Source: an uncultured Candidatus Actinomarina sp.
GTDB taxonomy: Bacteria; Actinomycetota; Acidimicrobiia; Actinomarinales; Actinomarinaceae
DNA length: 64,000 nt
NCBI GenBank assembly: GCA_902587025.1
Contig: CACIJJ010000004.1
Location: 4,510 to 68,509 of the forward strand
Direction: 5' to 3'
How positions within the stretch are numbered: the first letter of the stretch is position 1; the number at the start of each line of letters is the position of its first letter. Shown one piece after another: positions 1 to 60,409 of this stretch. The notes under the pieces were generated by a model. That model did not search any database, was not told the DNA's origin, and worked only from the letters and a program-made list of their open reading frames with translations. The translations under genes were made by a program, and so were the position numbers.

Positions 1-1077
1 TTTATCAAATGCAACATCCCAATCAAGTGTTGGACTACCCTCGTGACAACCAGCACCATCATTATTTGTTGTATTGTTTGCATAGAGATATGAGCTTGAG
101 TATGTAGCTCTATCAACAGAAAAGCTATTGTTTCCATTATGGTTTATCTTATATAACTGTCCAGTTCCATTGTTTATTGCATAAAGTTCATCTTTACCAA
201 AACCAAACACAGCACCTGCAGCATCACCAGAACTAGACCAGTTAGATGGTGTTGAAACACTTTGAGATTGAACATTTATTGATATTGACTCACTTCCACC
301 ACTATCACCTTGGTTCGTGTGTGATATGTATCCATATACAACTTTTCCATTTTTTCTGTCATAGCCAATTACATCTGGATTTTCCCCATCTGATAATCCG
401 GTAAAGTTCGCATTTGGTAACCAAGTAAAGTCTTTCGCTTTATTTGTGCCGCTCTCTCCAGTTCTGGACATTGAAATCTCAGTTGTTGAGCCATCTGTAT
501 TTAGTCTTATTGCAATATTATTACCCTTCATGAAACCATTTGAAGTCACCAAATATTTGTATCCATTTTTTTCGTAATATGTACCAGCATTATTATCTCC
601 ATCAGCCAATTGCTCGATAAAATCAGCTGTTCCATTGGTACCACTTGACGGCATATTTAATTTAAATAAGTACAGATCATCATCAGTTTGTTTAAGGAGG
701 GCATAGGCGTTTCCATCCCTATCCATCATGAATGAATTAACCTCGCTTATACTCGATCCATTGGATCCGTTATAAGGAGAAAAATCTGAATGTGTAAATG
801 TTGCAACAACTGTAGTATTTCCATTATTGCCATCAGTCTGACCAGTACTCGCTTGCCATCTGTAAACATCTAAATGATCGGAATCCCAGACACTTTGATA
901 AGCATATGCCCTTCCATCATTATTAAAACACGTGAATTCTCCAGTAGCATAAGCAGGTTCAGGATCAACTGTCTCAATTGTTACATATACAAGTGAGACA
1001 ATCATTAAAAATGACATAACTAAATTGAAAGTTTTCCTATTAAAGACGAACGAAAACAGCTTTTTAAACAAAAGCAC
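1..1077 (-). CDS. secreted or membrane-anchored repeat protein; only the N-terminal part is present because the gene runs off the left edge
   Basis: The minus-strand frame is open from the window edge to about 1017-1077. It is missing from the ORF track because no stop lies inside the window. My translation starts ..LLFKKLFSFVFNRKTFNLVMSFLMIVSLVYV, a charged n-region followed by a hydrophobic segment. G/N/S/T/D-rich segments with recurring aromatic-Gly motifs follow (e.g. FGFGKDELYAINNGTGQLYKI). The start is ambiguous: GTG 1077, TTG 1071 or ATG 1017. Confidence 0.55.
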   Translation of the reverse strand, partial: MLLFKKLFSFVFNRKTFNLVMSFLMIVSLVYVTIETVDPEPAYATGEFTCFNNDGRAYAYQSVWDSDHLDVYRWQASTGQTDGNNGNTTVVATFTHSDFSPYNGSNGSSISEVNSFMMDRDGNAYALLKQTDDDLYLFKLNMPSSGTNGTADFIEQLADGDNNAGTYYEKNGYKYLVTSNGFMKGNNIAIRLNTDGSTTEISMSRTGESGTNKAKDFTWLPNANFTGLSDGENPDVIGYDRKNGKVVYGYISHTNQGDSGGSESISINVQSQSVSTPSNWSSSGDAAGAVFGFGKDELYAINNGTGQLYKINHNGNNSFSVDRATYSSSYLYANNTTNNDGAGCHEGSPTLDWDVAFDK

Positions 1078-6864: not shown

Positions 6865-7503
6865 TTAAAGTTTATCACCAATATCAGTGACCACACCATA
6901 AACTCCTGTATTTAAAATATTATCTATTTCATCTTTATCATTAACTGTCCACACAACACATTTATCTTTTGGTAGGTCAAACTTTCTAGAATGAAAAATA
7001 TCTTTCTGGATCATAAACATTAAATTATCATCTAAATTCGAAATAGATTTGCTTTCGAATAATTGATTTTCTTCATCAATCAAAATACCATATCTTGAAT
7101 TAAATTTTTCTCTGTTGCTTAAAATTGTTCCCCAATCAAATGAAGAAACAATATCATCAGGATTTGTTAACTCAATAATTTTTTCTACAAAGATGGTGTT
7201 TAGAGTTTCTTGTTTATTGTTTACTTTTAATTCAAAATTTACATCTCCCAATATTTGATCTCTAGATGTTAAATGATTATCACTTAGGTCAGTACTTTTA
7301 ATGTCTGATATCTCTTGTAATGACAAATCTTCAATTTCTTGATTATTAATTGTCGAATCATGAAAAAGAATTAACTCTTCATCTTTTGTTATCCGTACAT
7401 CTGTTTCAACGAAATCACATATTTCAAGGGCTTTATTGAGACTCAAAAAGGTGTTTTCAGGGTATAAATTGGGTAAACCTCTATGACCAAAAATTTTTTT
7501 CAA
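6865..7503 (-). CDS. glycerophosphodiester phosphodiesterase family protein
   Basis: 212 aa. The N-terminus has the GDPD signature GHRG..N.YPENT......A......VETDVR.TKD..L...HD. Confidence 0.75.
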   Translation of the reverse strand: MKKIFGHRGLPNLYPENTFLSLNKALEICDFVETDVRITKDEELILFHDSTINNQEIEDLSLQEISDIKSTDLSDNHLTSRDQILGDVNFELKVNNKQETLNTIFVEKIIELTNPDDIVSSFDWGTILSNREKFNSRYGILIDEENQLFESKSISNLDDNLMFMIQKDIFHSRKFDLPKDKCVVWTVNDKDEIDNILNTGVYGVVTDIGDKL

Positions 7504-7550
7504 AAATACTTCCTTATATTTCCAATTTTAGTACAATTAATTCACTAGAT

Positions 7551-7566
7551 TGTGAAACATTTCACA
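7551..7566. promoter_or_regulatory. CRP/FNR-type operator TGTGA-AACATT-TCACA in the divergent intergenic region upstream of the whiB1-like gene
   Basis: The sequence is a perfect match to the TGTGA-N6-TCACA consensus. The palindrome extends to 7550..7567. The site lies 15 nt upstream of GTG 7581 and 54 nt upstream of ATG 7620. Confidence 0.55.
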
Positions 7567-7580
7567 AAGTAAGGAATAAA

Positions 7581-7865
7581 GTGCAAATAGTAAATTTTGA
7601 CTTAGAACAAGAACTTTGGATGCAGGAAGGGGCATGCGTTTTTGCTGATCCCGACCTGTTTTTTCCAGTAGGTTCTTCTATGAAAGCATTAAAACAAGCT
7701 GCTGAGGCTAAGGCAATTTGTAATGAGTGTGACGTAAAAATTGAATGTTTAGAATATGCTATTAGAACAAATCAAGACTCTGGTGTTTGGGGTGGAGCAA
7801 CAGAGGACGAGAGAAAATCAATTAGAAGAGAGTATAAAAAAACAGGTACTCTTGTAACTTCCTAA
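7581..7865 (+). CDS. whiB: WhiB-family Fe-S transcription factor, WhiB1-like
   Basis: It has four Cys (C..x..CxxC..xxxxC) and the motifs DPDLFFPVG and QDSGVWGG..EDER. GTG 7581 follows an AAGGA Shine-Dalgarno sequence. The alternative in-frame ATG 7620 would give an 81-aa product of typical WhiB1 length. Confidence 0.9.
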   Translation: MQIVNFDLEQELWMQEGACVFADPDLFFPVGSSMKALKQAAEAKAICNECDVKIECLEYAIRTNQDSGVWGGATEDERKSIRREYKKTGTLVTS

Positions 7866-8086
7866 ACTAAGCCAGCTTCCCTTTTATCGGTATCATCAAC
7901 AAATTCAATGGAATGTATTTGTTTAGCGTTGATGCCAATCTCACCATCTTCATCTTTAATCCAATACATTCCACCATTTTGGATTAATTCTTCAATTTCT
8001 TTTGTAAATTTCTTCTTATCATCAACTTCGGTTTGAAATTCCTTCATTGAACCAAGTAGTGCGATTTTTACTTTTTGCTTTGCCAC
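7862..8086 (-). CDS. DUF3107-like small actinobacterial protein
   Basis: 74 aa. Its length and pattern (VKIALLG...E........I..A...GG....KD..G....I.A..I..IEF) match my memory of DUF3107 (TB9.4-like) proteins. It overlaps the whiB 3' end convergently by 4 nt. Confidence 0.55.
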   Translation of the reverse strand: MAKQKVKIALLGSMKEFQTEVDDKKKFTKEIEELIQNGGMYWIKDEDGEIGINAKQIHSIEFVDDTDKREAGLV

Positions 8087-8095
8087 TATATCTCC

Positions 8096-9073
8096 TTATA
8101 AAACGTTTTCACCCATAAAAATTGCAGAGACAGAATCATCCGCAAAAATAGATGTTAGTGCCGTTGCAATAATAGAGGAAACGGAGAGAATGTTTACATT
8201 TCCGATTTTTTCTATATTCCCATTTTGTTTAAGTGTGTCTGTTACGACGATTTCTTCTATAGGAGTGTCTTGAAGTTTATCGACACTTTCATCAGAAAAA
8301 ATTCCATGAGTTGCTGCTACGCTCACAGATTTTGCACCTCTCTCAATTAGAGCTCTTGATGCAGCAGCAATTGTGCCTCCTGTATCAATTATGTCATCAA
8401 ATAATATTGCGTGTCGATCCTCAACTTCACCGATGACAGTAAATGCCTTTACTTCATTATGTATCTTTGGATCTCTCTTCTTGTGTACAAAACCAACATA
8501 AGCCTCCATGTTTTTAGCAAAAGTTGTAGCTCTTCTCACTCCTCCAGCGTCTGGGGAAATTATTGTTATAGGCTCTTGAAATTTTTCTTTAAAGTAATTT
8601 ACAAATAATGGCATAGCTGTCAAATGATCGAATGGCTGATCAACAAATCCTTGAATCTGTTGTGTGTGTAAATCAATTGAGACTATCCTGTCTGCTCCTG
8701 CTGCAATAAATAGGTCGGCAACTAATCGAGCAGATATTGGCTCTCTAGGTAATGCTTTTTTATCCTGTCTTGAATATGGGTAAAACGGAAGTACAGCAGT
8801 GATTCTTTTTGCAGATGCTCTTTTTAAGGCATCTACAAGTAAAAGCTGCTCCATAATTGTAAAGTTAACTTGGCCTGAATGGCTTTGCATTACAAAACAA
8901 TCAGCACCTCTCACACTTTCTTGTAAACGTATATAAATTTCTCCATTTGCAAATTGAGTTTTATCTACTTCAGCAAGTTCAGTTCCTAATTCTTTTGCAA
9001 CTTTATCGGCCAATTCAGGATTTGAAGAACCTGAGAATATGAGCATTTTCTTTTTGCCAGCTCTCTCAATCAT
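8096..9073 (-). CDS. prs: ribose-phosphate pyrophosphokinase
   Basis: 325 aa. PRPP synthetase motifs are present (DLHTQQIQGF, DDIIDTGGT). It shows the usual actinobacterial glmU-prs pairing. Confidence 0.95.
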   Translation of the reverse strand: MIERAGKKKMLIFSGSSNPELADKVAKELGTELAEVDKTQFANGEIYIRLQESVRGADCFVMQSHSGQVNFTIMEQLLLVDALKRASAKRITAVLPFYPYSRQDKKALPREPISARLVADLFIAAGADRIVSIDLHTQQIQGFVDQPFDHLTAMPLFVNYFKEKFQEPITIISPDAGGVRRATTFAKNMEAYVGFVHKKRDPKIHNEVKAFTVIGEVEDRHAILFDDIIDTGGTIAAASRALIERGAKSVSVAATHGIFSDESVDKLQDTPIEEIVVTDTLKQNGNIEKIGNVNILSVSSIIATALTSIFADDSVSAIFMGENVL

Positions 9074-10443
9074 TTCTTTCCTTTTTTATTTTTTCGATCC
9101 ATATAGCCCTCAATATTTTTCTGATCATTTCTTTCAATACCAAGAGCACCTGGAGGAACGTCTTTTGTTATAACAGATCCAGCACCTACCATAGCTCCTT
9201 CACCAATGGTCACAGGTGCAACAAGCATGGTATCTGAACCTACAAATGCATTTTTCTTTATTTCAGTTTTATGTTTTTCTTTACCGTCATAATTTACTGT
9301 TATTGCTCCAGCTGAAAAATTAACATCTTCTTCTAATTCTGCGTCTCCGACATAAGCAAGATGAGGTACTTTACTGCCTTTCCCAATTTTTGAATTTTTT
9401 GTTTCTGCAAAAGCTCCGACTTTTACATTTTCATCTAGAATAGATCCTTTTCTTAAATGAGCATAAGGACCAATTGTTGCCTTGCCTTTTATTTCTGCTT
9501 CATCAATTACTGAAAATTGAATTACAGAGCCCTCTCCTATTTTTGAATCATTAATTATCGAGTTTGGTCCTATGACACAATCTTTTTCAATGATTGTTGC
9601 TCCCGTTAAATGACAATTAGCTAAGATTCTTGATCCGGAGGCTATCTTCACAGATTTATCTATATATGTTGAATTAGGATCTTGAAAGTATACACCATTT
9701 TCCATGTGGGATTCAATTAGTTCTTTCCGAAGCGTGTTCTCAACATCATTCAGCTGACTCATGGAATTTATACCTTGTATTGAATCTTCATTTACTTGTA
9801 CTATAACCCTTTCAAGATTGTTTTGAAAAGCTATATTTATTAAATCTGTAAGATAAAACTCTTTTTGATTATTTGAACTTTCTAAACTTCCGATATTTGA
9901 ATTCAAGAAATTTATATCTATGCAATATATTCCAGAATTAATTTCATTGATTTGTTTCTCGGCTTCATTCGCGTCGGATTCTTCAATTATCTTTTCAAAC
10001 TCTTCATTATTTTTTACAATTCTTCCATACCCAAACGGGTTTTTAACTTTTGCTGAAATTAATCCGATTGCAGCTTTATTTTCTATGACATCATTTACTA
10101 ATTTATCTAACTCGTCCTTTCTTATGAGAGGAACATCGCCTGGAATTACTACCAAGTATTGACTGTTATCACTTTCAAACTCGCTGCTTTCTAATAATGT
10201 AGAAATTGCGTGACCTGTACCAAGTTGTTCTTTTTGTACTATCGGAATAAAAGTCTCAAATATGGTTGAGGATACTTTTTCTGATTGATGTCCAACAACT
10301 ACATACTTACTATCAAAATGACTAATTGCTTCTTGAGCGTACTCTATCATTGGAATACCAAGTACGTTATGAAGAACTTTTGGAAGGGAGGACTGCATTC
10401 TTGTCCCCTGACCAGCAGCTAAAATTACACCTGAAATACTCAT
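9070..10443 (-). CDS. glmU: bifunctional UDP-GlcNAc pyrophosphorylase / GlcN-1-P acetyltransferase
   Basis: 457 aa. The N-terminus carries LAAGQGTRM and the C-terminus has left-handed beta-helix hexapeptide repeats. It overlaps prs by an ATGA. Confidence 0.95.
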   Translation of the reverse strand: MSISGVILAAGQGTRMQSSLPKVLHNVLGIPMIEYAQEAISHFDSKYVVVGHQSEKVSSTIFETFIPIVQKEQLGTGHAISTLLESSEFESDNSQYLVVIPGDVPLIRKDELDKLVNDVIENKAAIGLISAKVKNPFGYGRIVKNNEEFEKIIEESDANEAEKQINEINSGIYCIDINFLNSNIGSLESSNNQKEFYLTDLINIAFQNNLERVIVQVNEDSIQGINSMSQLNDVENTLRKELIESHMENGVYFQDPNSTYIDKSVKIASGSRILANCHLTGATIIEKDCVIGPNSIINDSKIGEGSVIQFSVIDEAEIKGKATIGPYAHLRKGSILDENVKVGAFAETKNSKIGKGSKVPHLAYVGDAELEEDVNFSAGAITVNYDGKEKHKTEIKKNAFVGSDTMLVAPVTIGEGAMVGAGSVITKDVPPGALGIERNDQKNIEGYMDRKNKKGKK

Positions 10444-10451
10444 TTAATTTT

Positions 10452-10526
10452 TGGCTGGGGGAGAAGGACTCGAACCCTCAACGTTGGGACCAAAACCCAA
10501 TGTGTTGCCAATTACACCATCCCCCA
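10452..10526 (-). tRNA. tRNA-Gln (anticodon TTG), CCA encoded
   Basis: The minus-strand sequence TGGGGGATGGTGTAATTGGCAACACATTGGGTTTTGGTCCCAACGTTGAGGGTTCGAGTCCTTCTCCCCCAGCCA folds by hand into a cloverleaf. It has a 7-bp acceptor stem, an anticodon stem TTGGG/CCCAA with loop TTTTGGT, and a T-loop TTCGAGT. Confidence 0.9.
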
Positions 10527-10541
10527 ATACTTGTCTTAATT

Positions 10542-11366
10542 CTAATCTGAAATTGTTTCCAAACTAAAATCAATTTTTTTTACTATTTTTACAATTCTAA
10601 ATTGGTTCTCATCTATAAGGTCAAACTTTTTTTGTAAGTTATCCAAAGTGCCAAGACAATACATCGAGCTACCACTCCCCGACAAAAAGAATTCTTCATC
10701 TGTTGATGATTCTAAGTAATCTTTAATTTTTATTAAATTGGGTTCAATTGTTGTTGATGGATTCCAGAAGTCGTTAAATATTTTTATATCTTTATATGTA
10801 TTTACTAAAGTTGAAGTATTTTTTAATCTATCAAATTCTGAAAATGCTTTTGCAGTTGAGACAATTTCATTAGGTACTACAAGCAACATATTCAATTCAA
10901 TATCAATTTTTTTTGGCTCAATAATATCACCAATTCCTGTGACAAACGCTGGTTGTCCATTAATGAAGAAAGGTACGTCACTACCAATTTTTTGAGCAAC
11001 TTCTTTATTGGATGGAATAGATAGGTTATATACTTCTGACAACTTCGACAATAACGCTCCTGCATTAGTACTACCGCCTCCAAGGCCAGATTCAGTTGGA
11101 ATATTCTTAGTTATATTTATTTCAAAATACTTAGAAAAATCATTTATTTCTCTTAATAAGTTTAAAGATTTAGATACAGTATTGTTTTCTGTAATATTCA
11201 TTGAGTCGAAAGAGATAATATCTTTATCATTCTTGATTTCTTTTATTTCAATAACGTCATAAAGATCTATTGGAACGATTAAGGACTCAATTTTATGAAA
11301 TCCATTAACTAATTCGTCTAACACTCTTAGGTTTAGATTTATTTTTCCAAAGGATTTAATTTTCAT
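10542..11366 (-). CDS. ispE: 4-diphosphocytidyl-2-C-methyl-D-erythritol kinase
   Basis: 274 aa. It has the KINLNLRV N-terminus and the GHMP kinase motif GLGGGSTNAGA. Confidence 0.9.
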   Translation of the reverse strand: MKIKSFGKINLNLRVLDELVNGFHKIESLIVPIDLYDVIEIKEIKNDKDIISFDSMNITENNTVSKSLNLLREINDFSKYFEINITKNIPTESGLGGGSTNAGALLSKLSEVYNLSIPSNKEVAQKIGSDVPFFINGQPAFVTGIGDIIEPKKIDIELNMLLVVPNEIVSTAKAFSEFDRLKNTSTLVNTYKDIKIFNDFWNPSTTIEPNLIKIKDYLESSTDEEFFLSGSGSSMYCLGTLDNLQKKFDLIDENQFRIVKIVKKIDFSLETISD

Positions 11367-12154
11367 TGTATCCTTTCTGCGATTGCTAAATAATCTTCAG
11401 GAGTTAACTCTTGTGGTCTTAAATCTAGATTTAACGATAATTTCTCAGCAATATCATCATCAATATATTTACTTAAGGCCGTTTTTATTTTCTTTCTTTT
11501 TTGTTGAAATGCGACTTTTGAGATTTCAAAAGCTTTTAGTCTTAATGCTTCATCAACAAGTGTCTCTCTTTGGATTGTTACAACTGTTGATAAAATTTTT
11601 GGTTTTGGTTCGAAACAGTTTTTACTTACATTGAACTGAATTTTTGTATTAGTAAATAATGAAGCGAGAACAGAAAGAGAGCCATATTGTTTGGTATTTG
11701 GCATTGCTACCATTCTTTCGGCAACTTCATCCTGGAGCATTACAACATATCGATGTATTTGAGGAACTTCGATAATTAGCTTAACCAACAATCTAGTTCC
11801 AATATTATATGGTAGATTACCAACCATAATCCACCAAGGGCCGGATAATTGGTTGTAATCATAATTCATTGCATCCTCATGAATCACCTCTATGTTCGGT
11901 ACATCTCCAAATCTTTCAGAGAGAATATTGACTAATTCTTTATCAATTTCTACAGCTTTAATCCTGTAATTATCCTTAAGTAATTCATTAGTAAGTGATC
12001 CTGTTCCTGGCCCAATTTCTATAATTGGATCAGCTAATTGACCTTGGACAAGTTTCGTAATTTTCCTTGAAATATTTGTATCAATTAAAAAGTTTTGTCC
12101 CAAATTCTTTTTTGGTTTTATATTTAATTTGTTAATCCAAAATACTTCGCTCAA
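11363..12154 (-). CDS. rsmA: 16S rRNA (adenine1518/1519-N6)-dimethyltransferase
   Basis: 263 aa. It has LGQNFL, the SAM motif EIGPGTGSLT and NLPYNI. Confidence 0.9.
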   Translation of the reverse strand: MSEVFWINKLNIKPKKNLGQNFLIDTNISRKITKLVQGQLADPIIEIGPGTGSLTNELLKDNYRIKAVEIDKELVNILSERFGDVPNIEVIHEDAMNYDYNQLSGPWWIMVGNLPYNIGTRLLVKLIIEVPQIHRYVVMLQDEVAERMVAMPNTKQYGSLSVLASLFTNTKIQFNVSKNCFEPKPKILSTVVTIQRETLVDEALRLKAFEISKVAFQQKRKKIKTALSKYIDDDIAEKLSLNLDLRPQELTPEDYLAIAERIQ

Positions 12155-18810: not shown

Positions 18811-18825
18811 TCTATTTTATTATAG

Positions 18826-19163
18826 TGGAGGTGCGGGGAGTCGAACCCCGGTCCTTTTAAGCTACCCAACAGCTTCTCCGAGCGCATCTGGTGAAATACT
18901 ATTGAGAGAGTCACCAGAAACAAATTCTCAATAGTTTCTACCTTAAATCTTAAAAGTTAGCCGGTAATCTAACTTAGCATCCCACATTTCGACGCCGATA
19001 CTACCCGAGGTGGGAGCCCCGATAGTCGACGAGCAACAATTAAGCTGCTACGGCCAATTTAGGTTTGGCAGTTATCTTTTTTTTCCTACGTTTTTAATGA
19101 GGCCCTAGGACCCTCAGCTCGCTACTGAGAGGCTCGCTTCAAAGTCGAAGCCAGTTCACCCCC
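18826..19163 (-). ncRNA. ssrA: tmRNA (SsrA)
   Basis: The minus-strand 5' end is GGGGGTGAACTGGCTTCGAC and the 3' end is GGGGTTCGACTCCCCGCACCTCCA. The acceptor stem has a G3:U pair, the Ala identity element. The putative tag ORF is GCC AAA CCT AAA TTG GCC GTA GCA GCT TAA (19040..19069), giving AKPKLAVAA. smpB lies 5.4 kb away. Confidence 0.9.
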
Positions 19164-19214: not shown

Positions 19215-19862
19215 ATGAAAATTGATAAACAAACTTTTGATTTAGATGAAGAACTAAATATCTCAATAGATTTTGAGGATAATGATGGTTTAATATTTAT
19301 ACCTAAAAATGTAAGTGTAGAAATTAAAATAGCTAACTATTTTGGAAAAATTGTTATAAATAATTTATCTATAAAACACCTTGAAGATGAGCTCTCCCTG
19401 TCAAAAGTTGGATTAGAGCAAAACCTAAATAATCTAGATCTTAAACTTCTCGATAGATTTTTATTTAAACAGTTGAGTGATAAATCAACGTTTAATTATT
19501 CACCATTCGATTCGTTTTTAGAATATGATTTTTCTGTATTTGAAAAATCAAGAAGACCGAGTGATCTTGATTGGTCTATGTTTGCATCCTTATATGTTTT
19601 TGCTTGTAATGTTATTCCCGAATCAATTAAAGTAGAGTTAACTCTTGCAAAACATTTAAGAGTATCTGAAGAAGTTTTTAAAAGACTATTAAAGAAAATT
19701 CCAGACAAAATATTTAGAAAAACAGGACACCTTGAATCTAGAGGTGGTAATTTAACTTTCGATGCTGAAGAGTTAATAAAGAAAAACCTTAACGACACTC
19801 AGGCAAAATTATTTGAAGAAAGTCCTTTTTTGAAATTTCACTCAGGTTCTGATTTGGTCTGA
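19215..19862 (+). CDS. hypothetical protein, possibly with a C-terminal helix-turn-helix
   Basis: 215 aa. I recognised no family. The segment LTLAKHLRVSEEVFKRLLKKI looks HTH-like. It overlaps the convergent PPOX gene by 25 nt. Confidence 0.45.
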   Translation: MKIDKQTFDLDEELNISIDFEDNDGLIFIPKNVSVEIKIANYFGKIVINNLSIKHLEDELSLSKVGLEQNLNNLDLKLLDRFLFKQLSDKSTFNYSPFDSFLEYDFSVFEKSRRPSDLDWSMFASLYVFACNVIPESIKVELTLAKHLRVSEEVFKRLLKKIPDKIFRKTGHLESRGGNLTFDAEELIKKNLNDTQAKLFEESPFLKFHSGSDLV

Positions 19863-20281
19863 GCTCTACTGACCATTGATATAATTTTACTGACATCAAT
19901 TTCCCATATTTCTCTGGATTTGAATCCTGCTTGCTCCCAAGTAACATCTTCTGTTCTACCATAGGGTTTACCTGAATATCTATTTGATAAATAATCTATG
20001 TGGTCATTTGCAGTTGAATCTTGAACAATATTTTTAACAACACCCCTTATCTCCCAACATGTATACATATCAGATGGATGAAATATAACGAGTGAAATAT
20101 TTGGTTCCTTCCTTATGTTTTCTGTTTTTTTTCTTCCTTGTTCTGTATTGATAAGAATTTTATTATCTTTGTAATCAACCCACATTAAATGATTTTGCAT
20201 CTCTTTTTCATTGATTTTGGTTGATAATGCACAAAAAGCATTGTTATCAATTGCTTGTTTAAGTTCACCTGGAAGTTGCAT
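19838..20281 (-). CDS. pyridoxamine 5'-phosphate oxidase-fold protein, PPOX class, possibly F420/FMN-dependent
   Basis: 147 aa. Its pattern resembles the split-barrel PPOX class (ALST....M.NHLMWVD......ILINT..GRKK..NI...P.ISL). Confidence 0.6.
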   Translation of the reverse strand: MQLPGELKQAIDNNAFCALSTKINEKEMQNHLMWVDYKDNKILINTEQGRKKTENIRKEPNISLVIFHPSDMYTCWEIRGVVKNIVQDSTANDHIDYLSNRYSGKPYGRTEDVTWEQAGFKSREIWEIDVSKIISMVSRAQTKSEPE

Positions 20282-20311: not shown

Positions 20312-20875
20312 ATGGCATTTATAAAATTATTCAAATTTGAGGAATCATCTGGCTTATTAAAAAAAGAGTACGAAAAAGGTATGCGAAGAGCTGGAAGAAT
20401 TTGGAATGTTCTTACAATTCAATCACAAACTCCTGAAATATTAAAACACTCAATGAATCTATATGGATCAACAATGTTTGGTAATTCAAATATTTCGAGG
20501 TTCGATAGTGAATTATTAGCTGTCGTCACTTCTATTTCAAACGAATGTGAATATTGAATAAGGGCGCATTTGTATGATCTTCGGTCGGAGACAGATAATC
20601 AAAAATTAGTAGATGAAATAGCAGAGGATTGGACTACAAGCTCTATCTCACCAGTACAAATGGCAATGTGTGAATTTGCGAATAAATTAACTGAAAATCC
20701 AAATAAAGTTAATGAAAAAGATATTGAATTATTGAGGAGTTACGGTTTATCAGATAAAGATATTTCACAAATCGTACAAATTATTGCATATTTTAATTAT
20801 ATAAATAGAGTCGCAGATGGACTTGGATTAGAACCAGAAGAATTCATAGATAAAAAAGGTTATAAAAACAAATAA
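20312..20875 (+). CDS. AhpD/carboxymuconolactone-decarboxylase family peroxidase-related protein with an in-frame TGA (20555..20557); candidate selenoprotein
   Basis: Track ORFs 20312..20557 and 20570..20875 share one frame. Joined, they give 187 aa, which is typical for the family. The local sequence is SNECEY[TGA]IRAH, matching CxxCxxxH with the TGA at the second Cys. The downstream 106 codons are open. Confidence 0.7.
20578..20591 (+). promoter_or_regulatory. candidate SECIS apical hairpin tcttc-GGTC-ggaga
   Basis: The stem is 5 bp, including one G:U pair, and starts 20 nt after the TGA. The tetraloop GGUC begins 25 nt after the TGA. The stem is short, so this is suggestive only. Confidence 0.3.
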
Positions 20876-20913: not shown

Positions 20914-21828
20914 ATGAGTAATAACTCAAGATTAGTTATATTGTTCATTGCATTAATTGGAATAGCAGGATTGTCATTTTTTATATTTTCTGAGGATAAT
21001 GTTGATCAGCAAACTAATATCCAATCAGAGGCTGAAATTGAGACGACTACAACAATTTCAATTAATTCAACAACATCAACTTCTACTACAACAACATTGA
21101 TGGAAACAACTACAACAACATCTACAACTAGTACGAGTACTACAACTACTATTCCACCAAATCAGACAGCAATATTTGCTACACAAGAAGAAATAAATAA
21201 TAGTAAAAAGATCTCTTATGATTACTTGCAAAGTGGGTGTAAAAAAGATGAGCCAAATAATACAGATGAAGAATGGATAAAACCTATTGAGGTATTTACA
21301 TATGACGAAAATAAAATAAATTTCAACTTACAAATAGAGTCAACAATTCAACTAAATGTTGATTGTATCGGAAAGTTAATCACTTCAATCCTTAATGATT
21401 CAAGAGGTTGGATTAAAGTAACAGATAAAGAATTTCAGCTTGTAGATAATGTCGAAAGTGAGTTTGAATTCATTTTTGCATCACCTGAAAAAACTGATGA
21501 GTTATGTTATCCACTCGAGACAAATGGAATATATTCGTGTAGAAATGAACAACAAATTGTTATTAATTATTTTAGATGGGTTAATGGTGCAATTGATTTT
21601 GGATCTGATTTAGAAACGTATAGATTGTATCTCATCAATCACGAAGTTGGACACATTTTAGAATGGGGTCATGTTGGTTGTCCAAAAGAAGGTGCTTTGG
21701 CACCAGTTATGATGCAACAAAGCAAATCTACGATGGGTTGTGAACCATATGGATGGCCAATATATGAAATCTTAGAAAAAGAATTTGGTATAAATACGTA
21801 TTCATATTTGCCCGATAGCGATAATTAA
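20914..21828 (+). CDS. DUF3152-like secreted or anchored protein with an HExxH motif
   Basis: 304 aa. It has an N-terminal transmembrane segment and a Thr/Ser linker. The motif YRLYLINHEVGHILEWGHVGCP..GALAPVMMQQ matches actinobacterial DUF3152 as I recall it. Confidence 0.65.
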   Translation: MSNNSRLVILFIALIGIAGLSFFIFSEDNVDQQTNIQSEAEIETTTTISINSTTSTSTTTTLMETTTTTSTTSTSTTTTIPPNQTAIFATQEEINNSKKISYDYLQSGCKKDEPNNTDEEWIKPIEVFTYDENKINFNLQIESTIQLNVDCIGKLITSILNDSRGWIKVTDKEFQLVDNVESEFEFIFASPEKTDELCYPLETNGIYSCRNEQQIVINYFRWVNGAIDFGSDLETYRLYLINHEVGHILEWGHVGCPKEGALAPVMMQQSKSTMGCEPYGWPIYEILEKEFGINTYSYLPDSDN

Positions 21829-27199: not shown

Positions 27200-27877
27200 T
27201 TAAACATACCTTCCTTGATCTACATCACTCATTAATTTGCCATCCTTTAGTTGTAACACTCTTTTTTTTCTTCTGTTTACTATCGATGAATCATGTGTTG
27301 CCATTAAGACAGTTGTGCCAGCCCTATTGATTTTTTCTAATAATGTAATAATTTGAATGCTAAGTTCTGGATCTAAATTGCCTGTAGGTTCATCACATAA
27401 AAGGACAAGTGGATTCGATGCTAGTGCTCTTGCTATACATGCTCTTGTTTGCTCTCCTCCTGAAAGTTGACTGGGAAATTTATACATACTTTCGTTTAAT
27501 CCAACTAAATCAATCAACGTACTGGTTTTCTCATCAATTTCTTTTTCTTCAAACCCAAGTACTTCAAGAGCAAAACTTATATTCTCAAAAGTTGTTCTAT
27601 CTTCAAGAAGCTGTGGTTCTTGAGTAACAATTCCTAATTTTCTTCTCAACAAAGGTATTTTCCATTTTGGCAGGCTCGTTACATCCATATCTACAACTTC
27701 TATATCTCCTTTTGTCGGAGAATATTCTTTGTAAAGAAGTTTAAGTAAGGATGATTTTCCACTTCCAGAATGACCAATAAGATAGACAAATTCACCTTCT
27801 GAAATCTCTGTAGATACGTTTGAAAGTGCAACACTTCCACCTTGAAAAACTAACGAAACATTATCTAACTTAATCAT
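27200..27877 (-). CDS. ftsE: cell division ATP-binding protein FtsE
   Basis: 225 aa. It has Walker A GHSGSGKSS, LSGGEQ and LLCDEPTGNLD. Confidence 0.9.
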   Translation of the reverse strand: MIKLDNVSLVFQGGSVALSNVSTEISEGEFVYLIGHSGSGKSSLLKLLYKEYSPTKGDIEVVDMDVTSLPKWKIPLLRRKLGIVTQEPQLLEDRTTFENISFALEVLGFEEKEIDEKTSTLIDLVGLNESMYKFPSQLSGGEQTRACIARALASNPLVLLCDEPTGNLDPELSIQIITLLEKINRAGTTVLMATHDSSIVNRRKKRVLQLKDGKLMSDVDQGRYV

Positions 27878-28974
27878 TTAATCCCTGTCTACGCCATTTT
27901 AGATACTCATTGATAAATATGTTAATATCTCCATCTAAAACTGACTGGATATTTCCAACTTCAATATTTGTTCTTGAGTCTTTAACTTGTTGATAAGGTT
28001 GCATGACGTATGACCTAATTTGCCTACCCCAGCCAGCTTCAACTTGTTCACCTCTAATTGAGTTAAGTTTTTTTAATTTTTCTTCTTTTTCTAACAGTAT
28101 TAGTTTTGATTTTAGAAGGGCCAAAGCACGAACTTTGTTTTGTAATTGTGACCTTTCTGCCTGACAAGCAACTACTATTCCTGTAGGAATATGGGTAACT
28201 CTTACTGCTGAATCGGTTGTATTTACATGTTGACCTCCAGCTCCAGAAGATCTATAAACATCAATACGGATGTCATCATCATTTAAATCAAACTCATCCG
28301 AATCATCAATTAATGGAATAACATCAACTCCTGCAAAACTAGTATGTCTTCTTTTGTTACTATCAAAAGGACTTATTCTAACTAATCTATGAACTCCTCT
28401 TTCACTTTCTAAATTTGCATAAGCTCTGAAACTTTCTACTCTTATCGATGCAGATTTTATTCCTGCTTCTTCTCCAGAAGAAATTTCCTCTATCTCATAG
28501 CTCATTTCTATACTATCTAAATATCTTGTGTACATTCTTAATAACATTTCTGCCCAGTCATGAGCATCAACACCTCCCGCACCAGCATTAACTGTAAGAA
28601 CAGCTGAATGATTATCGAACTCACTTGAGTACAGAGATTCTTCCTCTAGGTCTATAATCTTTTGCTCGATTTCTTCAAATTGAGGTTTTATTTCTTCCAG
28701 TTCAGATAGATTATCTTTGCTTAATTCTGTTAATTCTTCCAAATCTTTAATCTCATTATCTAAAGTATTTAATAAATTAATTACTTTCTCAATGTTTGAA
28801 GCATTTTTAACAATATTTTGAGGATTTGATATTTCTGACCAAAAATCTTTTTTTGAGATTATTATATTAAGTTTTTCTAGTTCTTCTTTTTTATTATCAA
28901 AGTCAAAGATACTCCTTGGCAGAAGTTAATCTTTCTTTAAAATTTTTTATTTTGTTTCGGATATCTTTATACAT
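27870..28974 (-). CDS. prfB: peptide chain release factor 2, requiring a programmed +1 frameshift: complement(join(27870..28904,28906..28974))
   Basis: The 0 frame runs ATG 28974 .. MYKDIRNKIKNFKERLTSAKEYL to TGA. After a +1 shift the frame continues DFDNKKEELEKL... into the track ORF. The SPF and GGQ motifs are present. The total is 367 aa. Confidence 0.9.
28902..28917 (-). promoter_or_regulatory. RF2 autoregulatory +1 frameshift site: AAGGAG TAT CTT TGA C
   Basis: The minus-strand sequence is AAGGAGTATCTTTGAC. It consists of an internal SD-like AAGGAG, a 3-nt spacer, the slippery CTT, and then UGA followed by C. The E. coli site is AGGGGGTATCTTTGAC. Confidence 0.85.
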
Positions 28975-55489: not shown

Positions 55490-57118
55490 TCAAACAGAGG
55501 CAAAGGAATCTTTTGCATGATATGAAGATCTTACAAGAGGTCCTGATTCAATATGAGGGATACCAAGCTCTTGGCCGATAGTTTTATATTGCTCAAATTC
55601 TTCTTCTGATACATACCTATCAATTAATCTATGTCTTTGAGTAGGTCTTAAGTACTGTCCAATAGTGACGATATCTATATTGATACGAGATAAATCCTTA
55701 AGTACGGCTATTACCTCTTCAAATTCTTCACCCATGCCAACAATTAAACCAGTCTTGGTCTTTCCGAGAAAATGAGACTCCTTAGCGTATTGAAGTAGAG
55801 CTAGAGAACGACCATAAGATGCCGCAGTTCTTATTTCTCTTTGAAGGCGTGGAACAGTTTCTAAATTATGATTCAATACTTCAGGATTGGCATTTATGAT
55901 ATTATCTATTGCCTCTTTACTACCTTTAAAATCAGGAATTAAGACCTCAATAGATGTTTGATTATTTTTAAGTCTGACCTCATCAATGGTTTTTGCAAAA
56001 AATGCAGAACCTCCATCATCAAGATCATCTCTATTTACAGAGGTTATAACAGCATGGGTAAGGCCCATAATTTTTACACTTGCTGCGACTCGATAAGGTT
56101 CATCCATATCTAGATCACATGGTTTTCCTGTATTCACATCACAAAATCCACATGCTCTTGTACAGGTATCACCCATAATCATGAATGTTGCGGTGCCCAT
56201 GGACCAACATTCATATATATTTGGACATGATGCTTCTTCACATACTGTGTTAAGACGTTTTTCTTTAATTAAACTTTTTAGAGAGAGGTAATCTTTACCA
56301 AGGTTGGCTTTGACTTTCATCCATTCTGGTCTCTCTGGTTCACTCTTTACTGATGAATTTAAAGTAATTGGGACGGAGTTTTTAGAAGCATTGAACACAC
56401 CGTTGTTTACCAATTGATCGATATGAAATTCTTTTTTCTTCTTTAATTGTCTTGGGGTAAATTGAGAAAACTGTTTATCTACTTTCTCATATTTAAATAT
56501 TTCAACAAATTTTCTTGAAATTATTTCGGTGACTTCTTTAAATGAAACTGTCTCATCATATTGCTGGATAGAAACTACATGTTCATCACTGCTTCCACAC
56601 GGATTTATAAAATCAAACCCTTTTGTATTTTCACTTATATTTAATGAGAATCCGTGAAGTGTTGTCCATTTACTGACTTTTATTCCAATAGAAGCAATTT
56701 TTCCTTCTTTGGTCCATACTCCAGTATCATCAGTTTTTGAGAAAGCCTCTATTGATAGTTCAGCAAGTGTATCAATAATAACATTTTCAATTTTACGAAC
56801 AAAAGGAACTACTTTTTTTGGATCATCTAATCTAATTATTGGATATCCAATTAATTGACCATCACCATGAAAGGTGATATCTCCCCCTCTATCTGTTTCA
56901 AAAAATTCAATATTATTTTCATTTAGTATATTTTTTGAAACTAGTAAATTGTTAATATCTCCCGATCTTCCAATTGTCACTACATTATTGTGTTCTAACA
57001 AAAGTAAGTAATCAAATGGTGAATTTTCTAGGCTAGTAGCCGAGTGAAGACCTTTTTGAAGTATATAGGCTTCTCCATAAGGTAATTTTCCTAGCCATCT
57101 GATATTTAATTCTCTCAT
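55490..57118 (-). CDS. lipB-lipA: fused octanoyltransferase LipB and lipoyl synthase LipA
   Basis: A single frame of 542 codons runs from ATG 57118, which forms an ATGA overlap with the E2 stop. The N-terminal about 215 aa are LipB-like (RGGDITFHGDGQLIGYP, SIGIKVSKWTTLHGFSLN). The C-terminal part is LipA-like (CEEASCPNIYEC, radical-SAM CTRACGFC). The track ORF starts 18 nt further upstream. Confidence 0.85.
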   Translation of the reverse strand: MRELNIRWLGKLPYGEAYILQKGLHSATSLENSPFDYLLLLEHNNVVTIGRSGDINNLLVSKNILNENNIEFFETDRGGDITFHGDGQLIGYPIIRLDDPKKVVPFVRKIENVIIDTLAELSIEAFSKTDDTGVWTKEGKIASIGIKVSKWTTLHGFSLNISENTKGFDFINPCGSSDEHVVSIQQYDETVSFKEVTEIISRKFVEIFKYEKVDKQFSQFTPRQLKKKKEFHIDQLVNNGVFNASKNSVPITLNSSVKSEPERPEWMKVKANLGKDYLSLKSLIKEKRLNTVCEEASCPNIYECWSMGTATFMIMGDTCTRACGFCDVNTGKPCDLDMDEPYRVAASVKIMGLTHAVITSVNRDDLDDGGSAFFAKTIDEVRLKNNQTSIEVLIPDFKGSKEAIDNIINANPEVLNHNLETVPRLQREIRTAASYGRSLALLQYAKESHFLGKTKTGLIVGMGEEFEEVIAVLKDLSRINIDIVTIGQYLRPTQRHRLIDRYVSEEEFEQYKTIGQELGIPHIESGPLVRSSYHAKDSFASV

Positions 57119-58398
57119 GATATTTCCTGAGACCAATCTGTATTTTCAAGCTTATTTTTAATTGAATTTAAAAACATCAGAGCTGTAGACCCATCAAAAA
57201 CTCTATGATCCCAAGTTAAACTCAATATGCCAATGTGGCGAATTGCAATTGAGTCAGAACCATCATCCATCTCTAAAACTACTGGTCGTTTTTTAACTGA
57301 CTCAGTGGAGAGTATTGCTACATTCGGTTGATTTATAATTGGTGAAGTGAGAAATGAGTTAAATGATCCGTTATTTGATATCGTAAAGGTACTTCCTGTT
57401 ACATCGTCTAGATTAAATTTTCCATCCCTTAAAAGCTTTGAAATTTCAGTAATTTTTCTTGCAGTACCTTTTAAATTATAGGAATCAGCTCCTCTGATAG
57501 TTCCAACAAGAAGTCCTTCTTGATTTATATCAACTGCAATACCTAGTTCAATATTCTCATGAACTGTATGAACTCCTTTTTCTAAATCAAATGAACTATT
57601 GACTACTGAATGCTCTCTCAATGCACTAACAACAGCATTTGCAATAAATGGCAAATAAGTTAATGAAAAATTATTTTCTTTCTTAAATTTATCTTTTACC
57701 TTGCTTCTTATATTCTCTACATTTTCGAAATCTACCTCTACTGATGTCATCACGTGTGCAGAAGTTTGTTTTGATAAAATCATATTTTCAGCAATTTTTT
57801 TCCTCAACCTTGGAATCTCTGATGTACCAATATCAGCAGATTTTGTTTGTGTCGTTGAGGGTTTTTCTTGACTACTAATTTTTCCAGAGCCATTGTTTAT
57901 ATAGTGGTCAATATCTTTTCTTGTGACCCTACCATCTTTACCTGTTCCCTGTACAGATTTTAAATCAATATTATTTTCTGATGCTAGTCTTCTGACTACT
58001 GGTGAGACTTTACCGATATTTTCTACTTTAGTTGTTGGCTGATCTTCTTCTACAACTTCTTTATTTTCTTCAACTTCTTCGACTAGATTTTGATCAGTTG
58101 GAGCATCTACAACCTCTTCAACCACATTATTCGTATCACTTGTAACATCCTCTGAAGAATTTTTTCCATCCAATTCAAGTAGTGGAGACCCAACTTCTAC
58201 AGTTTCACCCTCTTCAACTAATAATGCAGAAACTGTTCCAGAAAAGGGACTTGGCACTTCAGTATCAACTTTATCTGTAGAAATTTCTAATATTGGATCA
58301 TCTTCTTTTATTGAATCTCCAACATTTACAAGCCACCGGAGTATCGTACCCTCAGTAACAGTTTCCCCAAGCTGTGGCATAGTTATGCGTTCACTCAT
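57115..58398 (-). CDS. dihydrolipoamide acyltransferase, E2 of a 2-oxoacid dehydrogenase complex
   Basis: 427 aa. It has a lipoyl domain (EISTDKVDTEVPS), a peripheral subunit-binding domain (SPVVRRLA..NIDL..V.GTGKDGRVTRKD) and the catalytic motif DHRVFDG. Confidence 0.9.
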   Translation of the reverse strand: MSERITMPQLGETVTEGTILRWLVNVGDSIKEDDPILEISTDKVDTEVPSPFSGTVSALLVEEGETVEVGSPLLELDGKNSSEDVTSDTNNVVEEVVDAPTDQNLVEEVEENKEVVEEDQPTTKVENIGKVSPVVRRLASENNIDLKSVQGTGKDGRVTRKDIDHYINNGSGKISSQEKPSTTQTKSADIGTSEIPRLRKKIAENMILSKQTSAHVMTSVEVDFENVENIRSKVKDKFKKENNFSLTYLPFIANAVVSALREHSVVNSSFDLEKGVHTVHENIELGIAVDINQEGLLVGTIRGADSYNLKGTARKITEISKLLRDGKFNLDDVTGSTFTISNNGSFNSFLTSPIINQPNVAILSTESVKKRPVVLEMDDGSDSIAIRHIGILSLTWDHRVFDGSTALMFLNSIKNKLENTDWSQEIS

Positions 58399-58402
58399 AT
58401 AG

Positions 58403-60409
58403 TTATTGTAATTCCTTTAGGGCATTTATAACTTTTTCAACGCTTGGAATAAATGCATCCTCTAAAACAGGGGCAAATGGAATATGGGTATTTGGAGATG
58501 TAACTTTTTTAATAGGGTTATCAAGATTCCAAAAACCTTTTTCAGCAACAAGTGATGAAATTTCTGAAGCAACTGATGAAAATGGAACATCTTCTTGAAG
58601 AATGCAAATATTTGATGTTTTCTCGACAGAATTCAATATTATTTCTTCATCAAGAGGAACTACAGTTCTTATATCGACTATCTCTACCGAGATATTTTCT
58701 TTTTCAAGTTTTTCAGCAGCTTCTTGTGCAACTGAAACCATACCTGACCAAGTAACTAAGGTTACATCAGATCCTTCACGAACAACTTTTCCTTTACCAA
58801 TCTCAACCTCATAAAGTCCTACTGGTACATCCATTTTGAGATCTGGTTTTCTATAAAGTTTCTTATGCTCTAAGTACATGACCGGATTGGGGTCATTAAC
58901 TGCAGCAACTAATAGTCCTTTTGCATCATAAGGATTAGATGGTGCAACAACTTTAATCCCAGGGTGATGAGCTAATAAAGATTCAGGACTAATTGAATGA
59001 AATGGGCCGGATCTTGTTCCTGCTCCAGTTGGTCCTCTAACAACCATTGGCACAGCTTTTCCAGCTTTCCAATAATATTTTGCAGCTTCGGTTGTTAATT
59101 GATCAAGTGCTGGATAAACAAAATCATAAAATTGCAATTCAACAATCGGTTTTTGACCAGCCAATGCAGCACCTACTGCAGCACCTGTGAAACCACCTTC
59201 AGATATTGCAGTATCAATTACTCTAAACGGTCCAAATTTATCAAATAATCCTTTTGTTGCTTTGAATGCTCCCTCAAACACACCAACATCTTCACCCATA
59301 ATGAATACACCTTCATCAGCTGTCATTAGTTCGTCTAAAGCATTATTTATTGCTTCAATATAATTCATTGTTTTTAAATTATTTAAATTATTTTCAATAA
59401 TTGGTTTTGTTCGAATAGCAAACATATCTTTAAGTTCATCATTAGGATCAGGATCTTCCTGGCTTTTTGCCCACTCAAGGGTATCTCTAATTTCAACTTC
59501 TAAATTAGATCCTAAATCTAAAAAGTCTTGTTCTGTAAATAGTCCTTCATTAACTAATGAATCTTCAAACCTAGCTATAGGATCTCTTTTCATCCAAAAA
59601 TCTCTAACTTCATCCTCAACGTAATCAGCTGGATCATGTCCAGCGTGTCCATAATGTCTAAATGTGACTAATTCAATTAATGTTGGACCTTGACCGTTCC
59701 GAGCATTTTCACATGCTTCGTGAATGGTATCAATGATGTCATAAATATCATTACCGTCAATTATTAAAGATGGAATACCGTATCCTGCTCCTCTATCAGC
59801 AACATTAGGAGTTCCAAATTCAGTCTCATTCGGTGAAGAGTACGCAAATTGGTTATTTTGAACTGTAAAAACGACTGGAAGGTTTAGAACGCCAGCCATA
59901 TTTACACTTTCATGCCAAGTTCCCGTTGCAGTTGCACCTTCACCACAGTTTGCAACAGCTACAACACCACTTCCTTGTTGTTGAGAGGCTAATGCCCAAC
60001 CTACTGCAACAGGTGCAGAATCAGGGAGTGGAGAAACAACCATTAAAGTTCCTTTATCAACTACTCCAAAGTGACTGTTTCCATCTCTTCCTTTTGATGG
60101 ACCATCTTTTTTTCCAAAAAAGTTAAGTGCAACTTCCTTTAAAGTTACACCTTTCATGAGTTGGACACCTAAATCACGATGAGTTCCTCCAAATATATCT
60201 TGTTTAGCCATTCCTGCCCCTATACCTGCCATTGAAGCTTCCTGACCAATTCCTGGATAAACTGCACCGCTTAATTGTCCACCTTTGTACATTTTTAATA
60301 AACGATCCTCAAGAAGTCTTTGTGTTTTCATAGATTTATATACTTCCCAAAGTTGTTCACTTGAGAGAGTTGATGAATATCCTTTTCTTACTATTTTTTC
60401 TACTTTCAC
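58403..60409 (-). CDS. 2-oxoacid dehydrogenase E1 component with fused alpha and beta subunits
   Basis: The alpha-like TPP-binding part (GEGATATGTWHESVNMAG..LPVVF) and the beta-like part (MNYIEAINNAL...IMGEDVG) sit in one frame. I place the start at GTG 60409, which overlaps the lpd stop as TAGTG, giving 668 aa. The track ORF runs on to 60517, inside lpd. Confidence 0.8.
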   Translation of the reverse strand: MKVEKIVRKGYSSTLSSEQLWEVYKSMKTQRLLEDRLLKMYKGGQLSGAVYPGIGQEASMAGIGAGMAKQDIFGGTHRDLGVQLMKGVTLKEVALNFFGKKDGPSKGRDGNSHFGVVDKGTLMVVSPLPDSAPVAVGWALASQQQGSGVVAVANCGEGATATGTWHESVNMAGVLNLPVVFTVQNNQFAYSSPNETEFGTPNVADRGAGYGIPSLIIDGNDIYDIIDTIHEACENARNGQGPTLIELVTFRHYGHAGHDPADYVEDEVRDFWMKRDPIARFEDSLVNEGLFTEQDFLDLGSNLEVEIRDTLEWAKSQEDPDPNDELKDMFAIRTKPIIENNLNNLKTMNYIEAINNALDELMTADEGVFIMGEDVGVFEGAFKATKGLFDKFGPFRVIDTAISEGGFTGAAVGAALAGQKPIVELQFYDFVYPALDQLTTEAAKYYWKAGKAVPMVVRGPTGAGTRSGPFHSISPESLLAHHPGIKVVAPSNPYDAKGLLVAAVNDPNPVMYLEHKKLYRKPDLKMDVPVGLYEVEIGKGKVVREGSDVTLVTWSGMVSVAQEAAEKLEKENISVEIVDIRTVVPLDEEIILNSVEKTSNICILQEDVPFSSVASEISSLVAEKGFWNLDNPIKKVTSPNTHIPFAPVLEDAFIPSVEKVINALKELQ

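Follow-up and report, generated by a model that had tools for sequence, protein, structure and literature searches.

Gene structure at the locus

The DNA analysed here (the window) is a stretch of 64,000 nucleotides (nt) from contig CACIJJ010000004.1 of an uncultured Candidatus Actinomarina sp., with a GC content of 28-35%. Two open reading frames (ORFs) on its forward strand, 20312..20557 and 20570..20875, lie in the same frame, and what separates them is the TGA codon at 20555-20557 followed by only four sense codons, ATA AGG GCG CAT (I R A H). Reading through the TGA yielded a product of 187 residues. Around the TGA it reads S-N-E-C-E-Y-[TGA]-I-R-A-H, and its C-terminal half contains the peptide VADGLGLEPEEFIDK. 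An earlier inspection of the sequence (the original prediction) had taken the two ORFs for one gene of the AhpD-like peroxidase-related subfamily, in which the TGA encodes selenocysteine (Sec). This proposal was followed up by profile searches and by comparison with related genomes. The positions of all features are listed in Table 1.

For profile scoring, a Cys was put at the TGA position. The product matched the NCBIfam profile TIGR01926 ('peroxidase-related enzyme') with 140.7 bits (cut-off 81.8), residues 16-176 of the 187 being aligned with positions 15-176 of 178, and the Pfam carboxymuconolactone decarboxylase (CMD) profile PF02627 with 35.3 bits (cut-off 23). One alignment with PDB entry 3c1l ran across the TGA (residues 17-177, E = 9e-26), and the matches to PDB homologues spanned E = 9e-26 to 2.5e-20. 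With a shared frame and with one profile and one structural homologue extending over the TGA, the proposal of one gene instead of two was upheld, as was its end-to-end match to the subfamily. The 106 open codons originally counted after the TGA are in fact 105 sense codons; their openness was nevertheless beyond chance (about 2e-4, given the local base composition).

The TGA aligned with the second Cys of the CxxC motif in solved homologues (NHCYYCLTAH in 3c1l, and NRCVYCAVSH). The same column holds the Cys of CYYC or CVYC in the PDB homologues and a TGC codon in two further homologues (L206, L207). The alignment confirmed the claim that the stop falls exactly at the second Cys of C-x-x-C-x-x-x-H.

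Conservation of the TGA in Actinomarina

A scan of one genome per species gave 22 loci with 72-97% amino acid identity to the product, most of them named Candidatus Actinomarina or OCS155 and the rest filed as Acidimicrobiaceae, Actinomycetota or Acidimicrobiia. These loci were syntenic with the window and formed, together with it, a comparative set of 23 sequences. Codon 82 was TGA in all 23, and none of them contained another stop or a frameshift, so that the orthologue comparison suggested by the original prediction came out in its favour. Two distant homologues (GC contents of 43% and 67%) likewise had TGA at this site.

For the more distant pairs the dN/dS was 0.03-0.11 upstream and 0.12-0.24 downstream of the TGA, with synonymous sites saturated (dS about 1-2.6). 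These values argue strongly for purifying selection on both halves of the gene. The codons of I83, R84, A85 and H86 differed synonymously among the 23 sequences while the residues were kept. Because the residues are kept while their codons change, the stretch that links the TGA to the apparent downstream 'start' must be translated. UGA-82 is thus translated and not used as a stop.

The gene product is therefore considered to be one polypeptide, neither the remnant of a pseudogene nor one of two separate chains, because the TGA is conserved without other stops, the downstream part is constrained, the intervening codons are translated and no restart is conserved. With a probability of about 0.9, 20312..20875 holds one functional gene, which codes for an AhpD-like selenoprotein of 187 residues in Candidatus Actinomarina (TIGR01926/COG2128, CMD fold), its in-frame TGA encodes Sec, and gene callers have cut one intact gene in two. 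The points on which the original prediction had staked itself, namely the Sec machinery, possible read errors and decay in relatives, each fell on the side of a selenoprotein.

Candidate SECIS hairpin downstream of the UGA

A hairpin, tcttc-GGTC-ggaga, had been noted at 20578-20591, 20 nt past the TGA. Its position and sequence were correct, but the conserved element is somewhat larger and extends over 20575-20593 (UGAUCUUCGGUCGGAGACA). The whole element begins 17 nt past the UGA and its core stem 20 nt past it. In the core, 20578-20582 pair with 20587-20591 around the GGUC loop at 20583-20586; counted from the U of the UGA, this loop occupies +29..32, compared with +22..25 in Escherichia coli fdhF. 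Beyond the core the stem is extended by G22-C38 and U21-A39 across the bulged A23. In the E. coli genome, the UGA at codon 140 of fdhF is followed by GGU-UGCA-GGUC-UGCA-CC (2 bp, bulged U, 4 bp, GGUC loop), which verified the statement that the GGUC loop is that of the E. coli fdhF selenocysteine insertion sequence (SECIS). The calculated stability was -3.3 kcal/mol for the variant in the window and -6.2 for the majority variant, versus -4.2 for the E. coli fdhF 17-mer.

Comparison of the 23 sequences showed that the gene's longest stretch of unchanged nucleotides was 20582-20593 (CGGTCGGAGACA), covering codons 91-94, CGG TCG GAG ACA. While the amino acid was invariant at 100 of 185 positions, the codon was invariant at only 15, and these four codons formed the sole run of invariant codons longer than one. 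They include codons that are rare in this genome of 31% GC, CGG accounting for 1.9% of Arg, TCG for 5.1% of Ser and GAG for 24.5% of Glu codons. With the amino acid sequence fixed, this choice of codons had P = 3.3e-5. Leu90 was encoded exclusively by CTT or CTC. In UCUYC-GGUC-GGAGA, the invariant bases are the loop and the 3' half of the hairpin, and the C/U polymorphism in the stem preserves pairing (C-G to U-G at pair 27:34). The two distant TGA homologues had a hairpin in the same register, GACCUC-N6-GAGGUC, with U-A exchanged for C-G at pair 24:37.

The element is thus a stem-loop within the coding region just 3' of the UGA, with G(U) in a small apical loop, and selection at the RNA level is visible as synonymous-site constraint; the covariation amounts to about two events. 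The E. coli geometry is not fully reproduced, as an A (A23) is bulged instead of a U and the spacing is 17 nt instead of 11 nt. Models of bacterial SECIS elements allow a wider range of distances from the UGA. The hairpin at 20575-20593 is probably the SECIS of the AhpD-like gene and would be bound by SelB.

Several observations speak against this assignment. The hairpin is too short for its folding energy to reach significance (z = 0.64 for the 66 nt 3' of the UGA, -0.43 and -1.76 for 19-mers). The minimum free energy structures of the region after the UGA differed among species, and only the short hairpin was retained. No Rfam match was obtained at the locus, either in a scan of the whole window at the gathering threshold or in a scan of 20450-20750 at E<=10; Rfam covers few bacterial SECIS elements. 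Covariation is limited to one or two events, so the check on hairpin conservation that had been proposed was answered positively for nucleotide-level constraint and only thinly for compensatory change. GC-rich homologues in which the site is Arg or Cys have retained the hairpin core as well, and the conservation of the hairpin in the wider family could in part come from the peptide D-L-R-x-E. Because of this persistence, the strongest argument for the hairpin is the synonymous constraint within Actinomarina and not the covariation.

It is conceivable, and among the alternatives considered here it fared best, that Sec is inserted but that the GGUC hairpin is conserved for the peptide D-L-R-S-E-T, for codon-pair effects or for a ribosome pause, while SelB uses another element. 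The weak thermodynamic signal, the persistence of the core in Cys and Arg forms and the different hairpin of selD (see below), which lies 7-8 nt farther from its UGA, would all fit such a case. Amino acid constraint, however, cannot account for rare codons that are the same in all 23 lineages, since the codon varies at 85 of the 100 positions where the residue does not. The loop, the bulge and the stem lengths also match the experimentally defined minimal SECIS of E. coli, and no other conserved structure was found within 60 nt 3' of the UGA in the Actinomarina sequences. A function of the hairpin other than as SECIS is for these reasons regarded as unlikely.

Two metagenomic homologues (L203:601-1164 and L204:1501-2082, with GC contents of 67% and 54%) kept the first Cys and had a real Arg codon (CGA or AGA) in place of the TGA or TGC. 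Each of these Arg codons is one base away from TGA, and the GACCUC-N6-GAGGUC hairpin was retained downstream in both. A single mutation with loss of Sec could explain the Arg codons, as could a less ordinary process; that they are sense-codon-recoded Sec sites instead of true Arg can hardly be credited. Two GC-rich relatives, one of them on a 2.6-Mb contig (L206:1001-1570 and L207:1001-1570), had a Cys form which lacked the first Cys (motif N-S-T-R-Y-C). Both genes lay directly downstream of a gene for a 2-oxoacid dehydrogenase E2 (lipoyl) subunit. In mycobacteria, AhpD is linked to lipoamide and the lipoyl-E2 protein. By analogy the subfamily may have a functional link to lipoyl-E2, which is only a lead.

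UGA as a stop codon and public gene calls

Among 50 non-overlapping ORFs of at least 120 amino acids in the window, the stop was TAA in 36, TGA in 10 and TAG in 4. ATGA stop/start overlaps occur at some of the TGA stops, and the genes that end in TGA include those of the E2 acyltransferase and of a LipB-LipA fusion. The prfB gene for release factor 2 (RF2) has kept its programmed +1 frameshift site: ORF0 reads MYKDIRNKIKNFKERLTSAKEYL-stop and is continued in the +1 frame by DFDNKKEELEKL. Since this site works only if UGA is recognised as a stop, RF2 must read UGA as a stop. A genome-wide reassignment of UGA is excluded, and the statement that UGA is an ordinary stop elsewhere, which had been based on the E2 gene and on prfB, was extended to 10 of 50 ORFs. 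No other credible gene with an in-frame TGA was found in the window; the remaining cases were antisense shadows or adjacent genes sharing a frame by chance.

Many full-length protein entries in public databases (P0001-P0036, P0053 and P0055) show W at the Sec site. In three cases (P0030, P0053 and P0055) the DNA was checked, and the codon was TGA. The W stems from gene calling under translation table 4 on contigs that are short and AT-rich. In other pipelines the gene has been split into fragments of 81 and 101-104 amino acids. Splitting and false Trp form an annotation artefact that affects AT-rich selenoprotein genes systematically.

Sec machinery in the lineage

The active site of SelD was searched for with an AT-biased DNA pattern for S-H-G-A-G-TGA-[A/G]-C-K, and about 26 Candidatus Actinomarina loci were obtained (including L118, L129, L130, L132, L146, L166 and L180). 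In at least 13 cases selD occurred in the same single-cell genome as the AhpD-like gene, among them AG-453-E11, AG-891-I09, AG-913-G17, AG-422-J23, AG-337-K14, AH-736-J19 and AG-422-C10. The AhpD-like gene and selD are at L002 and L180, respectively, in AG-891-I09 and at L003 and L130 in AG-913-G17. The Actinomarina SelD proteins comprised 340-346 amino acids, shared 38-43% identity with E. coli SelD (E about 1e-80) and had a conserved in-frame TGA at codon 12 (RLTEYSHGAGUACK). An earlier DNA pattern, MRLT...GUGCK, had matched MedAcidi-type Acidimicrobiales and no Actinomarina, because the motif in Actinomarina is GUACK. The results of a search for relatives with MedAcidi SelD were dominated by other phyla.

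At +31..46 past its TGA, selD had a hairpin, GCUCAR-GUW-YUGA-N-GC, which was paired in 9 of 9 distinct sequences. Its loop-closing pair alternates between A-U and G-C through synonymous, compensatory changes. This hairpin and that of the AhpD-like gene have only the G-U in a small apical loop in common. As another gene, unrelated to the first, in which a UGA is conserved at the catalytic Cys, selD provides independent evidence that the lineage decodes Sec.

The other components were reported in a preprint ('Actinomarina, resolved', bioRxiv 10.64898/2026.04.03.716425), according to which selA, a divergent selB, selC and selD are present in 84 of 84 complete Actinomarina genomes, about five selenoproteins including SelD are predicted per genome, and Rfam models gave no SECIS. 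The remark in the original prediction that Sec use was not known in such streamlined actinobacteria has been outdated by this report of April 2026. Its text and supplement name no AhpD-like or peroxidase-related selenoprotein, and the supplement has no list of the predicted selenoproteins.

A point against Sec decoding is that searches of the window and of the retrieved loci gave no selA, selB or tRNA-Sec, and that their presence rests on this one preprint. ARAGORN detected no tRNA-Sec in the window and 48 Actinomarina loci, tblastn with the E. coli proteins gave no match to SelA, SelB or SelD in the window and in loci L001-L022, and the selD loci yielded SelD only. The check on the Sec machinery has consequently been answered for selD in the same genomes, and for selA, selB and selC through the preprint only. 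Within about 4 kb, Actinomarina selD had no selA, selB or tRNA-Sec next to it. In contrast, a GC-rich Actinomycetes metagenome-assembled genome, YF2.bin99 (L051, about 7074-11500), had selD (with TGA), tRNA-Sec (8263-8356), selB and selA within 4.5 kb.

The W in public entries and the Arg codons of the two metagenomic homologues would also be expected if UGA-82 were read by a standard tRNA, either through reassignment (to Trp as in code 4 or to Gly as in code 25) or through hairpin-stimulated near-cognate insertion of Trp, Cys or Arg. At the DNA level, however, the W entries read TGA, one in five of the long ORFs ends in UGA, and the UGA-sensing frameshift of RF2 has been retained. Codon 82 is at the position of the family's redox Cys, and SelD with Sec is present in the lineage, as are, by report, selA, selB and selC. 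A standard-tRNA reading is accordingly very unlikely.

One polypeptide or two

Both halves of the gene are conserved and a TTG codon (20570) follows four codons past the TGA in the window, as would be the case if the UGA were a stop, translation re-initiated at this TTG, and polypeptides of 81 and about 101 amino acids assembled afterwards. At codon 87, however, only 7 of the 23 sequences had TTG, which could serve as a start; 9 had TTA and 7 had CTA, so that no restart is conserved. The intervening codons, which include that of the invariant catalytic His86, have the synonymous pattern of translated sequence. Two chains would lose this catalytic residue and would break the CxxCxxxH helix, which is continuous in the solved homologues. 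A conserved split gene is thus highly improbable next to a single Sec-containing chain.

The chance that a decaying gene (TGY or TGG to TGA) or a sequencing or assembly error accounts for the TGA is practically negligible: although TGY to TGA is a one-base change and gene callers report two fragments, all 23 sequences, which represent 22 species, had the TGA and no other stop or frameshift, strong purifying selection acts downstream despite saturated synonymous sites, and the exact 81-amino-acid N-terminal fragment was present on at least 1000 independent public contigs. This recurrence answered the suggested check on read errors: the TGA is not one. Pseudogene and sequencing error were rejected as candidates on the basis of the comparative data, the relatives showing a conserved TGA and no decay.

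Proposed decoding and function

According to the selenoprotein interpretation, SelB would deliver selenocysteyl-tRNA(Sec) to UGA-82 and would be recruited by the small mRNA hairpin that lies within the coding region, 17-20 nt past the UGA. The product would carry the redox centre C79-x-x-U82-x-x-x-H86. In AhpD of Mycobacterium tuberculosis the second Cys (Cys133) is the nucleophile. Sec82 would take this part and form a selenenylsulfide with Cys79, like the CxxC pair in AhpD-type hydroperoxide/disulfide reductases. The Actinomarina protein is most likely a peroxide-detoxifying or a thiol/lipoamide-linked reductase.

A further idea, which is tentative and rather doubtful, is that Actinomarina, whose genome has about 1.1 Mb, may use a reduced form of Sec recoding, in which a divergent SelB recognises only a mini-hairpin with G-U in a loop of 3-4 nt and the AhpD-like protein and SelD are the core reason for the Sec pathway. 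It is based on the GGUC at +29 in the AhpD-like gene and the GUW at +37 in selD, both of which are farther from the UGA than in E. coli. If it were true, a universally conserved AhpD-like reductase and SelD would explain why Sec has been retained in one of the smallest free-living cells.

Other features of the window

The AhpD-like gene is flanked by a PNPOx-like gene and a DUF3152 gene. No ahpC or peroxiredoxin gene adjoined it (immediate neighbours examined), and the coupling to AhpC that characterises AhpD in the strict sense was thus not seen. A tmRNA gene (Rfam, 155 bits; tag AKPKLAVAA) is located 1.1 kb upstream, and the order tRNA-Gln, tmRNA, AhpD-like gene was retained in nearly all 22 Actinomarina loci. 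Two ORFs, of 463 and 215 amino acids, had no Pfam match at E <= 1e-3; the shorter one sits between the tmRNA gene and the selenoprotein gene.

The LipB-LipA fusion of 548 amino acids combines an LplA-B_cat domain with a lipoyl synthase (LIAS_N, Radical_SAM). It directly follows the genes of E1 (fused alpha/beta, 704 amino acids) and E2. The fusion gene ends in TGA and is by chance in frame with the next gene, which encodes transketolase.

Table 1. Positions of the AhpD-like gene, its elements and other features in the window
Feature	Position	Strand	Remarks
AhpD-like / CMD-fold gene	20312..20875	+	187 codons including putative Sec82, then TAA stop
In-frame UGA, codon 82	20555..20557	+	probable Sec; second-Cys position of redox motif
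Redox motif C79-E-Y-U82-I-R-A-H86 (CxxUxxxH)	20546..20569	+	C79, Y81 and H86 invariant in Actinomarina, codons vary synonymously
SECIS-like hairpin UGAUCUUCGGUCGGAGACA	20575..20593	+	2 bp (U-A, G-C), bulged A, 5-bp stem, GGUC apical loop
prfB (RF2)	27870..28742	-	RF-1 and PCRF domains
RF2 programmed +1 frameshift site AAGGAG TAT CTT TGA C	28902-28908	-	classical type
PNPOx-like gene	19838-20281	-	neighbour of AhpD-like gene
DUF3152 gene	20914-21828	+	neighbour of AhpD-like gene
tmRNA gene	18823-19163	-	
ORF, 215 amino acids	19215-19862	+	
ORF, 463 amino acids	13995-15386	-	
LipB-LipA fusion	55490..57136	-	ends in TGA
E2 acyltransferase	57115..58398	-	ends in TGA
E1, fused alpha/beta	58403-60517		

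Significance and comparison with known systems

The gene is a taxonomically placed member of a selenoprotein family known since 2005 and is not novel in kind; general knowledge of selenoproteins is unchanged by it. What is added here is the identification of the gene, its genus-wide conservation, a candidate SECIS, the independent confirmation of SelD as a selenoprotein and a record of the broken or mistranslated public gene calls, by which the redox centre of an abundant marine gene has been hidden through splitting or a false Trp. The protein would fit into the oxidative-stress defence of a photoheterotroph of the sunlit surface.

Selenoproteins of the AhpD-like family (COG2128) that carry a CxxU motif were reported in 2005 from 27 Sargasso Sea sequences (Zhang, Fomenko & Gladyshev; PMC1088965). 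In 2008 'AhpD-like 1' was, with 299 Global Ocean Sampling (GOS) sequences, the fourth most abundant prokaryotic selenoprotein family (Zhang & Gladyshev; PMC2398784), and the family is also listed in a review of 2022 (PMC9312934). The original prediction had referred to AhpD-like selenoproteins in marine metagenomes, and the first two papers document them. Judged by the published descriptions, the Actinomarina gene resembles AhpD-like 1 in its COG2128/TIGR01926-type domain, in the Sec at the second Cys (CxxU), in its surface-ocean origin and in a stem-loop just past the UGA whose small apical loop contains G. Unlike those unassigned reads, the gene here is placed in Candidatus Actinomarina and is conserved in 22 species.

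The curated AhpD-related selenoprotein profile NF041238 (AhpD_rel_CFYUT) has Sec at the same CxxU position, with C-F-Y-U-T where the present gene has C-E-Y-U-I. The match was confined to the C-terminal part of the 357-position profile and reached only 52.1 bits against a cut-off of 175; the gene is not a member. With M. tuberculosis AhpD (Rv2429) and the structures 3c1l, 2pfx, 2prr, 2oyo and 6k40, the Actinomarina protein shares the CMD fold and the CxxCxxxH active-site motif. AhpD and the solved TIGR01926-type proteins have Cys where the Actinomarina protein would have Sec, and it differs further in the absence of an adjoining ahpC. As the best profile is TIGR01926 and not the AhpD equivalog, an AhpC- or lipoamide-coupled mechanism is suggested by analogy only.

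The hairpin resembles the SECIS of E. coli fdhF in its location in the coding region 3' of the UGA, its GGUC loop, its short upper stem, its single 5' bulge and its similar stability. It differs in the nature of the bulged base and in the distance to the UGA, as described above, as well as in its 5+2 bp compared with 4+2 bp, and the Actinomarina element has no conserved long lower stem reaching the UGA.

The Actinomarina genomes of the preprint (bioRxiv 10.64898/2026.04.03.716425) belong to the same genus and are reported to have the Sec trait. The identity of the AhpD-like gene goes beyond that study and supplies a name and a likely function, that of an AhpD-type peroxide/disulfide reductase with a Cys-Sec centre, for one of the 'uncharacterised' selenoproteins that it implies. 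The hairpin described here provides a concrete candidate SECIS where Rfam models gave none.

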